Below the pieces are notes generated by a model, which worked only from the letters and a program-made list of their open reading frames with translations, had not been told where the DNA came from and did no database searches. A stretch of DNA of 64,000 bases from Escherichia coli. Its GTDB lineage: Bacteria; Pseudomonadota; Gammaproteobacteria; Enterobacterales; Enterobacteriaceae. Both the position numbers and the translations under genes were made by a program. Below are positions 3,962 through 50,135 of the stretch, one piece after another; position 1 is the stretch's first letter; every line of letters begins with the position of its first letter. The stretch lies in NCBI RefSeq assembly GCF_003790525.1, contig NZ_CP033635.1, one strand, 5' to 3'.

Positions 3962-4699
3962 TTACGAGCCGCGCAATAAGCGGTTGCCCGCGTCGCTGAT
4001 ATCTTCGGCTGTTTTCATCATCTTGATCTGCGCTTCAAACTGGCGGTTCATGGCGATGGACGACATCATTTCGCTCACCGCCGAGACGTTGCTGCCTTCG
4101 AGAAAACCGCCGCTGACTTTGATGTTTTCATCGCGCTGGGCCGGAATGCCGTCGCTAGTCACCAGCATCCCTTCAGGATTTTTCGCCAGGTTAGCGACCG
4201 GGATATCCACCAGCTTCAGGCGGTCGATATCCATCGTGGCGGTCACGTCGCCGTCATCAGGCGTCACCGACAGCGTGCCGTCGCTGCCAAACGAGGCAAT
4301 GGCGTTCGGCGGCAGAATGATCGGGCCGTTATCCCCCAGCACCAGATTGCCGTCGATGGTCAGTTGCCCCTGATCGTCCTGCTGAATGTTGCCGTTGCGG
4401 GTATAGACTTCGTTGCCGTTTTTATCCTGCACCGCAATGTAACCCGCGCCCTGAATCGCCACGTCCAGCGGGCGTTCGGTTTTCTCCGCCACACCCGTGC
4501 TGTCGTTCACGCCGCTGGCCCCTTCCTGCGCCATATAGCGAGTGTCGAAGCCGCCGCCTTTCACCTTGTCATTGGTCGCCATTGCCATATCGGCGCGAAA
4601 ACCGTTGGTGTTGACGTTCGCCAGGTTGTTGGCGCTAATCTGCTGCTCATACAACGTCTGAGAAGCCCCGCTCAGGGCGGTATAAATCAAGCGATCCAT
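3962..4699 (-). CDS. lfgF: Flagellar proximal rod protein FlgF
   Basis: 245 aa, rod protein family (NNLANVNTNGFR). Confidence 0.9.
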   Translation of the reverse strand: MDRLIYTALSGASQTLYEQQISANNLANVNTNGFRADMAMATNDKVKGGGFDTRYMAQEGASGVNDSTGVAEKTERPLDVAIQGAGYIAVQDKNGNEVYTRNGNIQQDDQGQLTIDGNLVLGDNGPIILPPNAIASFGSDGTLSVTPDDGDVTATMDIDRLKLVDIPVANLAKNPEGMLVTSDGIPAQRDENIKVSGGFLEGSNVSAVSEMMSSIAMNRQFEAQIKMMKTAEDISDAGNRLLRGS

Positions 4700-27967: not shown

Positions 27968-28465
27968 TTATACAATGATACGCTCCCCGGCACTAAAATC
28001 CGTTACGTCCCCCGCCCAATCGATGGGATATAACCCCTTCGCGACATCGCGATGAAACGTTGAGAATGGCCAATCACTCACTTGCTTTACCCAGCCATGT
28101 TTTACTGGATTTATATAAATATAATCAACATGATGGCGATAGTCTTTGGTATTGCGGATGGCGTGCTCCCAAAAACGCGGTTGCCAGATATTTTGCAATC
28201 CACAAGCATGGGTGAACTGTTTTTTAATCTCCCGCCAGCGAGAGGAAAAATCATCATCGCTTTCGGGTAATGTCCAGATACAGTGCATATGCTCCGGCAA
28301 AACTACCCAGGCGTTAATTTCAAAAGGTCTGGCTCGCTTAACGTTAATAATGACTTTACGGAGCATCTGGAACTGAGCGGTCAGAAGATGGCTTCGACGA
28401 TTTCGTAGGTTAACCGTGAAAAACCAGGTTCCCCCTTTGATGTAATAACGACGATATTCAGACAT
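27968..28465 (-). CDS. rayT: REP-associated tyrosine transposase RayT (YafM), IS200/IS605 TnpA-like
   Basis: 165 aa; matches the RayT/YafM sequence as recalled; flanked by REPs. Confidence 0.9.
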   Translation of the reverse strand: MSEYRRYYIKGGTWFFTVNLRNRRSHLLTAQFQMLRKVIINVKRARPFEINAWVVLPEHMHCIWTLPESDDDFSSRWREIKKQFTHACGLQNIWQPRFWEHAIRNTKDYRHHVDYIYINPVKHGWVKQVSDWPFSTFHRDVAKGLYPIDWAGDVTDFSAGERIIV

Positions 28466-28640: not shown

Positions 28641-29390
28641 CTACAAAATCGTCTCTTCCGTCAAAATCCGCCGCGCGCCTAAAAAATGATCCTGCCAGAA
28701 AGGTTCAGCTAACCGGCTTATCCGAATGGTTTCGCCGGTACGTGGTGACTCGATAAACTGACCGTCTCCCAGATACACCCCCATATGATCGGCTATCTCG
28801 CGGCTGTGAATATGGAAAAACAGCAAATCTCCCCGGCGCAGGTCGTTGTTCGCCACAATCGTTGCCCGATGGTAGTGATACATCTCATTGGCTGTGCGCG
28901 GGAGCTTCGCCTCAAGGATCTTGTTGTAGGCATAAAAAACCAACCCGCTACAGTCGAAGCCTTTATCGGGCCGCGTGCCGCCCCAGACATAAGGCTTGCC
29001 AAGCTGCTGCTCCAGGCGGTGAATCGCCACTTCGGTGATGTTGTGTAGATGGTCGCTGCTTAAGAAATGGTTGTTCTCCGCCAGCGCCTGCCAGCGTCTG
29101 TCACTCGCCTTGAGCGGCGCAGGAAACCATTCTGGATGCTGTTTTATCTGTTCGCGGTTGTGCTGGCGCAGCGCCTTTCTGCTTTCGGCATTGCCTTCCA
29201 CAATATAGCCGGCCTGCTTTTTCAGATGAGTTTGGTACTGTTTTAATAAACGCGCACGGTTTTGCATCCGCTGGCGGGCGGCGTAGCTGAAAGAGATATG
29301 TGATGTGGTGGCGCTGGCAAATGAAGAAAACGGCAAGCAAAGCAACAATAATCCCGACAACACAAAAGAGGGAATCGACGGCAAGGACAT
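28641..29390 (-). CDS. yafL: NlpC/P60-family lipoprotein peptidase YafL (ATG at 29390)
   Basis: NlpC/P60 catalytic region (DCSGLV...H...H); matches YafL as recalled. Confidence 0.88.
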   Translation of the reverse strand: MSLPSIPSFVLSGLLLLCLPFSSFASATTSHISFSYAARQRMQNRARLLKQYQTHLKKQAGYIVEGNAESRKALRQHNREQIKQHPEWFPAPLKASDRRWQALAENNHFLSSDHLHNITEVAIHRLEQQLGKPYVWGGTRPDKGFDCSGLVFYAYNKILEAKLPRTANEMYHYHRATIVANNDLRRGDLLFFHIHSREIADHMGVYLGDGQFIESPRTGETIRISRLAEPFWQDHFLGARRILTEETIL

Positions 29391-29567
29391 ACTCAATAAT
29401 GGCTGGTCATGCATTGATGTTGCAGTGTATCCCGGCCCGTACCTGAACAAACTTAATAAACCATTATTATAAAATTAATAAATATATTTCAGTTAATTAT
29501 GTAAAAACATCCGTTTATTAAATTACTCATGGATTGTCGCTGTTGCTCATTTGAGCTACAATTCAAG

Positions 29568-29583
29568 CTGAATAAATATACAG
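29568..29583 (+). promoter_or_regulatory. LexA box (CTG-N10-CAG) in the dinJ promoter
   Basis: ctgaataaatatacag located 17 nt upstream of the dinJ ATG. Confidence 0.7.
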
Positions 29584-29599
29584 CACAGGAGATATCCCA

Positions 29600-29860
29600 A
29601 TGGCTGCTAACGCGTTTGTTCGCGCCCGAATCGATGAAGATCTGAAGAATCAGGCGGCGGACGTACTGGCCGGGATGGGGCTGACCATCTCTGACCTGGT
29701 TCGCATAACCCTCACAAAGGTCGCGCGTGAAAAGGCATTGCCGTTTGATTTACGCGAGCCTAATCAATTAACTATTCAATCAATCAAAAACAGCGAAGCT
29801 GGCGTTGGTATTCATAAGGCCAAAGACGCCGATGATTTATTTGATAAATTAGGAATTTAA
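29600..29860 (+). CDS. dinJ: Antitoxin DinJ
   Basis: 86 aa; matches DinJ as recalled. Confidence 0.93.
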   Translation: MAANAFVRARIDEDLKNQAADVLAGMGLTISDLVRITLTKVAREKALPFDLREPNQLTIQSIKNSEAGVGIHKAKDADDLFDKLGI

Positions 29861-29862
29861 AT

Positions 29863-30140
29863 ATGATTCAAAGGGATATTGAATACTCGGGACAATTTTC
29901 AAAGGATGTAAAACTTGCACAAAAGCGTCATAAGGATATGAATAAATTGAAATATCTTATGACGCTCTTATCAATAATACTTTACTGCTTCCAGCTGTTT
30001 ATAAAGACCACCCGCTGCAAGGTTCATGGAAAGGTTATCGCGATGCTCATGTCGAACCGGACTGGATCCTGATTTACAAACTTACCGATAAACTTTTACG
30101 ATTTGAGAGAACTGGAACTCACGCGGCGCTATTTGGGTAA
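29863..30140 (+). pseudogene. yafQ: yafQ toxin gene disrupted by a frameshift (apparent 1-nt deletion near codon 36-37)
   Basis: N-terminal frame encodes MIQRDIEYSGQFSKDVKLAQKRHKDMNKLKYLMTLL then diverges and stops at 30072; another frame from about 29970 encodes INNTLLLPAVYKDHPLQGSWKGYRDAHVEPDWILIYKLTDKLLRFERTGTHAALFG and stops at 30140. Confidence 0.8.
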
Positions 30141-30295
30141 AGCCCGCTGCCGATGAAATTTGTAAACCCTGCGCCGACAGGCTTGCGTAAAACTCTTTTG
30201 GTGATAATGTGAGCCTTCCAAATCCAGACTATTCCGATTTGGGATCCATTTTGCCGTCCTGGCGTGTGTAACCGTTTTATCAAGGAATAAGCAGT

Positions 30296-31036
30296 ATGCG
30301 TAAAATCGCATTAATTCTTGCGATGTTGTTGATCCCGTGCGTTTCGTTTGCCGGTTTGCTGGGCAGCAGTAGCTCGACCACGCCAGTGAGCAAAGAGTAT
30401 AAGCAGCAGTTGATGGGATCCCCTGTCTACATCCAGATCTTCAAGGAAGAACGTACGCTCGATCTCTACGTCAAAATGGGCGAGCAATATCAACTGCTCG
30501 ACAGCTATAAAATCTGTAAATATTCCGGCGGCTTAGGGCCAAAACAGCGTCAGGGCGATTTCAAAAGCCCGGAAGGGTTTTATAGCGTCCAGCGTAATCA
30601 GTTAAAACCAGACAGCCGTTACTACAAAGCGATTAATATTGGATTCCCAAACGCCTATGACCGTGCGCATGGTTATGAAGGGAAATACCTGATGATTCAC
30701 GGCGATTGTGTTTCCATCGGCTGCTACGCGATGACCAATCAGGGTATTGATGAGATCTTCCAGTTCGTTACTGGTGCGCTGGTGTTTGGTCAGCCGAGCG
30801 TGCAAGTGAGTATTTACCCGTTCCGTATGACCGACGCCAATATGAAGCGCCATAAATATTCCAACTTTAAGGACTTCTGGGAGCAACTGAAGCCAGGCTA
30901 CGACTACTTTGAGCAAACCCGTAAGCCACCGACCGTTTCTGTGGTCAATGGCCGTTACGTGGTCAGCAAGCCGTTAAGCCACGAAGTTGTGCAGCCACAA
31001 CTGGCATCAAACTACACGCTCCCCGAGGCAAAATAA
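30296..31036 (+). CDS. yafK: L,D-transpeptidase-family periplasmic protein YafK
   Basis: 246 aa; signal peptide; YkuD/L,D-transpeptidase-like core (HGDCVSIGC). Confidence 0.9.
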
Positions 31037-31774
31037 GCGCCATTCACCTGGCATAATCTTTTGCCAGGTTTCATTGCCCGTCAGCGGCTGTGTCGCAATC
31101 ACCGTGACCACATCATTCGGTGTGGTCTGCGAGCTGAAGTCGATTTCCACATCCTGATCCAGCAACGTTGCCACGCCAAACGGCGCGCGGCGGGTGATCC
31201 AGTGTAAATTAGTCGAGCAATACGCCATTACATAGCGCCCGTCAGAAAGCAGCATGTTGAAAACGCCCTTCTGCCGCAGTTCATCCGCCAGTGAGGCGAT
31301 ATATTTAAACACTGCCGCCATGTTGCCCGGTGTGCGCGGGTAACGCTGCGTTAATTTATGCAGGAGCCAGCAAAAGGCTTTTTCGCTATCGGTTTCACCG
31401 ACCGGGCGGAAGTTGCCGGTTTCCAGTGATTTGTAGCCCGTCAGTTGTCCATTATGGGCATAAGTCCAGTTACGCCCCCATAACTCGCGGGTAAACGGGT
31501 GAGTATTTTCCAGCGCCACCTCGCCCCGATTAGCCTGGCGAATATGAGCCACCACCGAACAGGATTTTATCGGGTAGTCCTGGACAAGTTTGGCGATGGG
31601 GGAATTAAAGCTGGGTTGCGGATCTTTAAATGTGCGACAGCCTTTACCTTCGTAAAAGGTAATGCCCCAGCCATCTTTATGTGGCCCGGTTCCACCACCA
31701 CGCTGTACAAGTCCGGTGAAACTAAAGCAGATATCGGTAGGGACGTTGGCGCTCATCCCGAGCAATTCGCACAT
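31007..31774 (-). CDS. yafJ: Class II glutamine amidotransferase-like protein YafJ (ATG at 31774 giving MCELLG N-terminus)
   Basis: N-terminal Met-Cys typical of Ntn-type GATase; convergently overlaps the yafK 3' end. Confidence 0.88.
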
Positions 31775-44885: not shown

Positions 44886-44910
44886 GCGTTAACTCGAGGC
44901 TTCTTAATAA
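44886..44910 (-). terminator. Rho-independent terminator of the rRNA operon
   Basis: Minus strand reads gcctcgagttaacgctcgagg followed by TTTTTTTT. Confidence 0.8.
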
Positions 44911-44911
44911 G

Positions 44912-44988
44912 TGGCGGAACGGACGGGACTCGAACCCGCGACCCCCTGCGTGACAGGCAGGTATTCTAACCGACTGAACTACCGCTCC
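44912..44988 (-). tRNA. aspU: tRNA-Asp (GUC), distal tRNA of the rRNA operon
   Basis: Identical to the aspV sequence in this window. Confidence 0.97.
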
Positions 44989-45040
44989 ACCGAATTCTTT
45001 TACAACCACCGGTTTTATGACCGGCTTACTGCTTAATTTG

Positions 45041-45160
45041 ATGCCTGGCAGTTCCCTACTCTCGCATGGGGAGACCCCACACTACCATCGGCGCTACGGC
45101 GTTTCACTTCTGAGTTCGGCATGGGGTCAGGTGGGACCACCGCGCTAAGGCCGCCAGGCA
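45041..45160 (-). rRNA. rrfH: 5S ribosomal RNA
   Basis: Reverse complement is a 120-nt 5S rRNA (TGCCTGGCGGCC...CTGCCAGGCAT). Confidence 0.97.
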
Positions 45161-45252
45161 AATTCTGTTTCATCAGACCGCTTCTGCGTTCTGATTTAAT
45201 CTGTATCAGGCTGAAAATCTTCTCTCTTCCGCCAAAACATCTTCGGCGTTGT

Positions 45253-48156
<2,904 letters not shown>

Positions 48157-48330
48157 TCACAACCCGAAGATGTTTCACTTCAGAGTTGCGAAAATTTGAG
48201 AGACTCACGAACAACTTTCATTGTTCAGTGTTTCAATTTTCAGCTTGATCCAGATTTTTAAAGAGCAAAACTTCGCAGTGAACCTTTGCAGGTACACTCT
48301 GAAGTATTTTTTATTTAATCACTACAGAGA

Positions 48331-48406
48331 TGGTGGAGCTATGCGGGATCGAACCGCAGACCTCCTGCGTGCAAAGCAGGCGCTCTCCCAGCTGAGCTAT
48401 AGCCCC
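48331..48406 (-). tRNA. alaV: tRNA-Ala (UGC), 16S-23S spacer
   Basis: Reverse complement GGGGCTATAGCTCAGCTGGGAGAGCGCCTGCTTTGCACGCAGGAGGTCTGCGGTTCGATCCCGCATAGCTCCACCA. Confidence 0.97.
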
Positions 48407-48448
48407 ATAACATGTAGTTAAAACCTCTTCAAATTTGCGATGCAAATT

Positions 48449-48525
<77 letters not shown>

Positions 48526-48593
48526 GTAGAGGTTTTACTGCTCATTTTCATCAGACAATCTGTGTGAGCACTGCAAAGCACAGTTCTTTAAGG

Positions 48594-50135
<1,542 letters not shown>

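Follow-up and report, generated by a model that had tools for sequence, protein, structure and literature searches.

The toxin gene yafQ was found to be frameshifted next to an intact dinJ antitoxin gene in a 64,000-nucleotide stretch of Escherichia coli chromosome (hereafter the window), in which the yafQ pseudogene occupies positions 29863-30140 on the plus strand. This confirms the observation made in an earlier note on the same DNA and supports its interpretation; of the two explanations offered there, a real inactivation of the toxin is the correct one. We are highly confident that the locus carries a genuine, inherited loss-of-function allele of yafQ, which arose by toxin-first decay and left DinJ as an orphan. 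In the proposed course of events, the ribosome-dependent mRNA endonuclease toxin YafQ would have been lost through deletion of one T from codons 35-36, and translation from the normal start would yield 36 native residues joined to a 33-residue out-of-frame tail. Since such a product would be without the beta-sheet core and the residues needed for mRNA cleavage, no active toxin would be formed, and with dinJ, its promoter and its LexA box intact the locus would express an orphan antitoxin only. The decay of chromosomal type II modules usually begins in this way, as the toxin can go first without harm while loss of the antitoxin first would be harmful. Decay of chromosomal toxin-antitoxin modules of E. 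coli via inactive-toxin mutants has been described (PMC7167474), and toxin-first decay of the type II modules of the E. coli chromosome is an established idea (PMC7167474, citing Mine 2009 and Fiedoruk 2015). The kind of event is already known, and public annotation already lists the allele as a pseudogene; a search of a literature library found no paper describing this yafQ allele, only general accounts of toxin-antitoxin decay. The present analysis establishes the lesion, how it alters the reading frames, its frequency in the population, its single origin and the presence of independent lesions in other lineages.

Alignment of yafQ with the intact E. coli alleles of MB50, CE10 and MSI001 revealed that one base is missing, the gene comprising 278 nt instead of 279. 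At gene position 104/105 (codons 35-36) the sequence CGCTTCTTATC of the intact alleles corresponds to CGC-TCTTATC, i.e. a change from CGCTTCTTATC to CGCTCTTATC in which one T of the TT pair at gene positions 104-105 is gone. As a consequence CTTC is reduced to CTC at 29965-29967 (plus strand), and the T kept at 29966 is the remnant of the pair. The single-nucleotide deletion postulated in the earlier note is thereby identified as a missing T, and its placement at 29968-29971 needs to be corrected to 29966 on the DNA level; the interval holds as the point at which the protein switches frame, 2-5 nt past the missing base. Besides the 1-nt gap, a single position differs between this yafQ and the intact MB50 allele. 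Since the lesion is defined against near-identical homologues, chance is not at issue. The frameshifted gene is an ortholog of E. coli yafQ, as it lies at the same position, between dinJ and dpaA, in all compared genomes.

Translation of both frames agreed with the proposal that the 36-residue N-terminus of YafQ and its C-terminal half are encoded in different frames. Frame 1 from 29863 reads MIQRDIEYSGQFSKDVKLAQKRHKDMNKLKYLMTLL, i.e. 36 native YafQ residues, and past residue 36 it continues with 33 unrelated residues, SIILYCFQLFIKTTRCKVHGKVIAMLMSNRTGS, up to a stop codon at 30070-30072. The open reading frame in the start-codon frame (29863-30072, plus strand) encodes the 69-aa peptide with an unrelated tail that had been predicted, and it keeps the yafQ start site at 29863, 2 nt past the dinJ stop codon. 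The remainder of YafQ is found in the frame from 29865, which reads LINNTLLLPAVYKDHPLQGSWKGYRDAHVEPDWILIYKLTDKLLRFERTGTHAALFG followed by a stop and ends at 30140; here, LINNTLLLPAVYKDHPLQGSW...THAALFG is terminated at 30138-30140. This out-of-frame remnant (29970-30140, plus strand) comprises YafQ I37-G92 plus the stop codon and includes all catalytic residues. Neither ATG nor GTG nor TTG occurs in the remnant frame between the last upstream stop and its end, and without a start codon the remnant cannot be translated on its own.

The consequences for the protein were assessed with family models and published mutagenesis data. Against the YafQ model TIGR00053 the 69-aa product scored 27 bits (cutoff 87.25) and covered profile positions 1-35 only; it therefore lacks the full-length match expected of the YafQ family (TIGR00053; RelE/StbE, TIGR02385). 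The protein with the T restored scored 115.3 bits against the same cutoff, covered positions 2-91 and shared 98% identity with YafQ of structure 4ML2. None of the residues H50, H63, D67, R83, H87 and F91 is present in the 69-aa product. All six lie in the 29970-30140 frame, in line with the expectation that the C-terminal half holds the catalytic residues, and the catalytic residues H50, H63, D67, H87 and F91 are not in frame with the start codon. Each of the latter five is necessary for toxicity and mRNA cleavage by YafQ (PMC4652777). R83, H87 and F91 have been described as active-site residues, and a Tn5 insertion that takes out YafQ residues 71-92 abolishes toxicity (PMC4996492). As all catalytic residues are confined to the out-of-frame segment, the toxin is, judging from this mutagenesis of K-12 YafQ, almost certainly inactive. 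With an intact antitoxin gene and a toxin pseudogene the locus does not constitute a functional type II toxin-antitoxin module.

The neighboring dinJ (29600-29860, plus strand) is an intact open reading frame for the 86-aa antitoxin and repressor DinJ, now an orphan. DinJ matched the RelB/DinJ model TIGR02384 with 83.7 bits (cutoff 45.65) over residues 1-84 of 86, which together with the intact frame assigns it to the RelB/DinJ family of antitoxins, and it shares 97-98% identity with its counterparts in MB50 and O157:H7. Upstream, a sigma-70-like sequence (29534-29562, plus strand) consists of TTGTCG, a 17-nt spacer and TACAAT with nine of 12 consensus matches; it is the same in alleles with an intact yafQ, and its location ahead of the LexA box and dinJ suggests that it serves as the promoter of the dinJ-yafQ operon. 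The LexA box AGCTGAATAAATATACAGCA was read from the sequence at 29566-29585 (plus strand), with its CTG-N10-CAG core at 29568-29583, and was invariant in alignments with MB50, O157:H7, CE10 and MSI001. Full-length frame, family-model score and unchanged LexA box all bear out the statement of the earlier note that dinJ and its LexA box look intact, and the promoter hexamers, LexA box, ribosome-binding site and dinJ all match loci with an intact yafQ. It was reported that LexA binds the dinJ promoter, with no induction by DNA damage being seen, and that DinJ represses its own operon as well as cspE, thereby lowering RpoS (PMC4996492). From the conservation of these elements, DinJ should still be made in carriers of the frameshift; there it probably continues to act as a repressor on its own promoter and may also retain the reported repression of cspE, with its lowering effect on RpoS. 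Among the sampled carriers, zero substitutions were found in a core of 1.26 kb around the locus, and the intactness of dinJ is as compatible with too little time for decay as with continued selection.

The distribution of the deletion was analyzed with a 40-mer (29946-29985) that contains 20 nt on each side of the lesion and was subjected to a megablast search of 5,426 complete E. coli genomes. Because megablast requires a 28-nt exact word, the 40-mer seeds only on sequences that bear the deletion. Exact matches were obtained in 157 of these genomes, all of them chromosomal, 100% identical and full length. The carriers originate from humans, dogs, poultry, cattle, wild birds, a dolphin, river water and wastewater on several continents, and they include SMS-3-5, a strain named ST648, IMT16316, MS6198 and ECONIH1, which we take to be phylogroup F strains. 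In public assemblies, the exact 69-aa product and the exact DinJ variant were each present on at least 1,000 contigs. In all eight carrier genomes that were inspected, RefSeq lists 'yafQ, pseudogene, frameshifted' beside the same intact DinJ (WP_000729708.1).

The origin of the allele was traced with a repaired 61-mer, in which the T was restored and a linked T at gene position 124 (T124) was retained. An exact, full-length match was found in only 17 genomes, among them CE10, MSI001 and AR_0013, which carry an intact 92-codon yafQ (WP_000615978.1); the deletion is accordingly present in 157 of the 174 genomes with the T124 background. Counts by identity band from 60- and 61-nt queries were dropped, as partial 100% alignments swell the band of 99% or higher (236 for the repaired 61-mer, compared with the 17 full-length exact matches). 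Since the T124 background exists with an intact yafQ, the deletion is derived and arose on this background. Substitution D70G in DinJ is older than the frameshift, as it also occurs in relatives with an intact yafQ such as CE10, and the conservative V71I is the sole change specific to the frameshifted allele and the sole difference from CE10 DinJ. The window and six other carriers do not differ at all within a core of 1,257 bp (29392-30648) that includes the promoter, dinJ, the yafQ pseudogene, the spacer behind it and the beginning of dpaA. The identical core in these seven carriers fits a single origin of the deletion, and from these sequence comparisons we conclude that the frameshift had one origin, in a sub-lineage to which SMS-3-5, the strain named ST648 and IMT16316 belong. 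All sampled descendants of this sub-lineage carry the deletion.

On both sides of the core the window deviates from the six other carriers, at 17 sites in the yafL segment (29043-29391) and at a further 17 in the dpaA-yafJ segment (30649-31475). All 34 differences split in the same way, separating the window from all six others, and the YafL protein of the window is of the CE10/IAI39 type. Flanks that differ at 34 sites around an identical 1,257-bp core indicate that the dinJ-yafQ region is a recombination mosaic around a shared core. The gene order is flhA, rayT, yafL, dinJ, yafQ, dpaA (yafK), yafJ, lpcA and fadE, and positions 20000-44000 of the window are 100% identical to XH992, CS5L, HS4 and e1-39. 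SMS-3-5, 2D, KFu014 and about a dozen near-identical genomes match the same 24,001 nt in two pieces spanning 24,989 nt, which corresponds to about 988 extra bases there relative to the window. The lateral-flagellar (Flag-2) cluster at 1-27856 looks complete and contains flgK through flgA/M/N, fliE-J, a sigma-54 activator, fliM/N/P/Q/R, flhB and flhA. Its flgF homologue is an intact 245-aa open reading frame in the window (3962-4699); in the near-identical XH992 it has a 16-nt deletion and is annotated as a frameshift. The carriers FDAARGOS_497, IMT16316, WB61 and HS-02 have lost the Flag-2 cluster except for an flhA remnant, as in K-12. Between flhA and yafL, rayT (a REP-associated tyrosine transposase; 27968-28465, minus strand) is also present in the carriers 1517k, HB42 and MRY15-117 and is missing from those in which Flag-2 has been deleted. 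By reference to the annotation of XH992, an rRNA operon (tRNA-Asp, 5S, 23S, tRNA-Ala, tRNA-Ile and 16S) was placed on the minus strand at about 44900-50000, with several small indels between the two genomes in the 23S region that probably represent variation between rrn copies.

Lesions in yafQ were also found in other lineages, in each case with dinJ intact. In the O157:H7 type (ATCC 35150, L003:1304-1580) a 2-nt deletion at gene positions 21-22 leads to a stop after 22 codons, and an exact 60-mer of this lesion occurs in 296 records. IAI39 (L005:626-1000) carries IS600 in yafQ after codon 81, which removes R83, H87 and F91, and the 82-aa remnant is labelled a 'YafQ family addiction module toxin' in the annotation. 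LR-06 (L015:504-773) combines a 9-nt in-frame deletion of codons 37-39 with K48stop, and in SJ3 (L016:489-776) a 6-nt deletion removes the yafQ ATG, the annotation using an upstream start inside dinJ. These comparisons show that yafQ has been inactivated repeatedly and independently in E. coli while dinJ was kept. About 2,060 genomes match the dinJ-yafQ locus only partially, and all 15 of those sampled match only 45 nt downstream of yafQ. This fits the reported distribution (PMC6896753), in which the E/B1/A lineage carries dinJ-yafQ and phylogroup F alone has it among the members of the F/G/B2 lineage.

The locus shares with the K-12 DinJ-YafQ system (4ML0, 4ML2, 4Q2U) its chromosomal position between yafL and dpaA (yafK), the promoter, the LexA box, the 2-nt intergenic gap and a DinJ that is 97-98% identical, and the repaired YafQ differs from 4ML2 at F12Y and L43P. 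Unlike the K-12 system it has lost one T from codons 35-36, so that the catalytic half is out of frame and the module toxinless. It resembles the yafQ pseudogene of O157:H7, which is likewise frameshifted beside an intact dinJ, fixed in its lineage and listed as 'frameshifted' in RefSeq, but the O157:H7 lesion is independent and lies on a different allele background. The module described in PMC7167474 (citing Mine 2009 and Fiedoruk 2015) is also comparable, with a conserved chromosomal position, decay by deletion, nonsense mutation or frameshift, inactive-toxin mutants and a persisting antitoxin; that case, however, concerns the gyrase poison CcdB, whereas the toxin family here is that of the RelE/YafQ RNases.

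The second explanation offered in the earlier note, by which a sequencing or assembly error simulates a frameshift in a truly intact 92-codon yafQ, was weighed against these data. Single-base indels are the commonest assembly error, and the earlier note, based on one sequence, had left the point open. Against it, the same deletion is shared by 157 independent complete genomes that come from numerous laboratories, hosts and countries, among them the early reference strain SMS-3-5, and the exact product is found on at least 1,000 contigs. In addition, the base was lost from a TT dinucleotide instead of a long homopolymer, a scan of the yafQ gene detected no homopolymer of five or more, and the deletion is linked to T124 in yafQ and to V71I in DinJ, as expected for an inherited allele. 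We assign a negligible probability to this explanation and, on these sequence data, consider it excluded for practical purposes and already effectively refuted. Low-level synthesis of full-length YafQ by a programmed -1 ribosomal frameshift or by transcriptional slippage, which would leave the toxin merely attenuated, is exceedingly improbable as well. The two frames would be joined by a -1 shift at any point of 29946-30069, and two single-site A_AAG motifs are located in this zone (30003-30006 and 30030-30033). However, 29863-30069 contains no canonical X_XXY_YYZ heptamer, the gene does not offer a homopolymer of five or more either, and slippage at one or the other A_AAG would exchange native residues 37-47 at the least, among them Y47, a residue of functional importance in YafQ (PMC4652777). 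The arrangement is also not a conserved one: it derives recently from an intact gene as in CE10, and other lineages break yafQ by quite different lesions, which points to loss and not to regulation. Lacking the features of a programmed -1 frameshift site, and with an uninterrupted open reading frame in its relatives, the locus was not regarded as a recoding candidate; a scan for slippery heptamers, homopolymers and alternative starts gave nothing convincing.

A new function of the 69-aa product, be it that of a small peptide acting on membranes or of a fragment that binds the ribosome and is expressed together with DinJ, was judged very unlikely. Its translation would use the kept start site 2 nt past the dinJ stop under the LexA-box promoter, and the junction of native and unrelated residues forms a hydrophobic stretch, LKYLMTLLSIILYCFQLFI (residues 29-47, 29947-30003), that is flanked by basic residues and has a mean Kyte-Doolittle hydropathy of 1.83 over 19 residues, compared with 1.18 in the native protein. 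The product further keeps N-terminal basic patches implicated in ribosome binding; in native YafQ, the patches K14/K17, K21/R22/K24 and K28/K30 contribute to binding of the 70S ribosome, and the 16S rRNA has been implicated (PMC4652777). With these patches and the hydrophobic stretch, a residual or new activity of the product is conceivable. Yet the tail is an accident of the frameshift, the allele is invariant and provides no evidence of selection on the tail, and a segment of 36 residues from an alpha/beta fold of 92 is not likely to adopt a fold or to form a stable complex with the ribosome. Nor is such a peptide a general outcome, as the open reading frame is much shorter in other lineages (e.g. 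22 codons in O157:H7). The hydrophobic stretch, though the sole feature that hints at a new function, is probably meaningless. We see a slim chance that the locus encodes a new membrane-inserting 69-aa protein resembling a type I toxin, or that orphan DinJ has been selected as a regulator or anti-addiction factor; if a new peptide or a selected DinJ were true, the lineage of 157 genomes would have a rewired and not a dead module. An anti-addiction role of orphan DinJ was also followed up by searching for plasmid-borne dinJ-yafQ, which gave no real support. A plasmid collection yielded 16 matches, and most of the 15 listed were records of about 230 kb from K-12 laboratory cultures, which we take as F-prime plasmids, or megabase-sized 'plasmid' records; one plasmid from chicken meat matched dinJ-yafQ at 85%.

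Inherited loss of the toxin with retention of DinJ is of little importance beyond bookkeeping, but it has consequences for how these genomes are read. Genomes of the frameshifted lineage should be scored as being without functional YafQ in toxin-antitoxin inventories, and YafQ has been reported to be highly prevalent in phylogroup F (PMC10790755). Loss of YafQ would affect the persistence and stress phenotypes ascribed to DinJ-YafQ in strains such as ST648, and the yafQ deletion provides a clean, single-origin marker of the sub-lineage. Together with the lesions of O157:H7, IAI39 and LR-06, the allele makes a tidy case of repeated toxin-first decay in which the antitoxin is retained.
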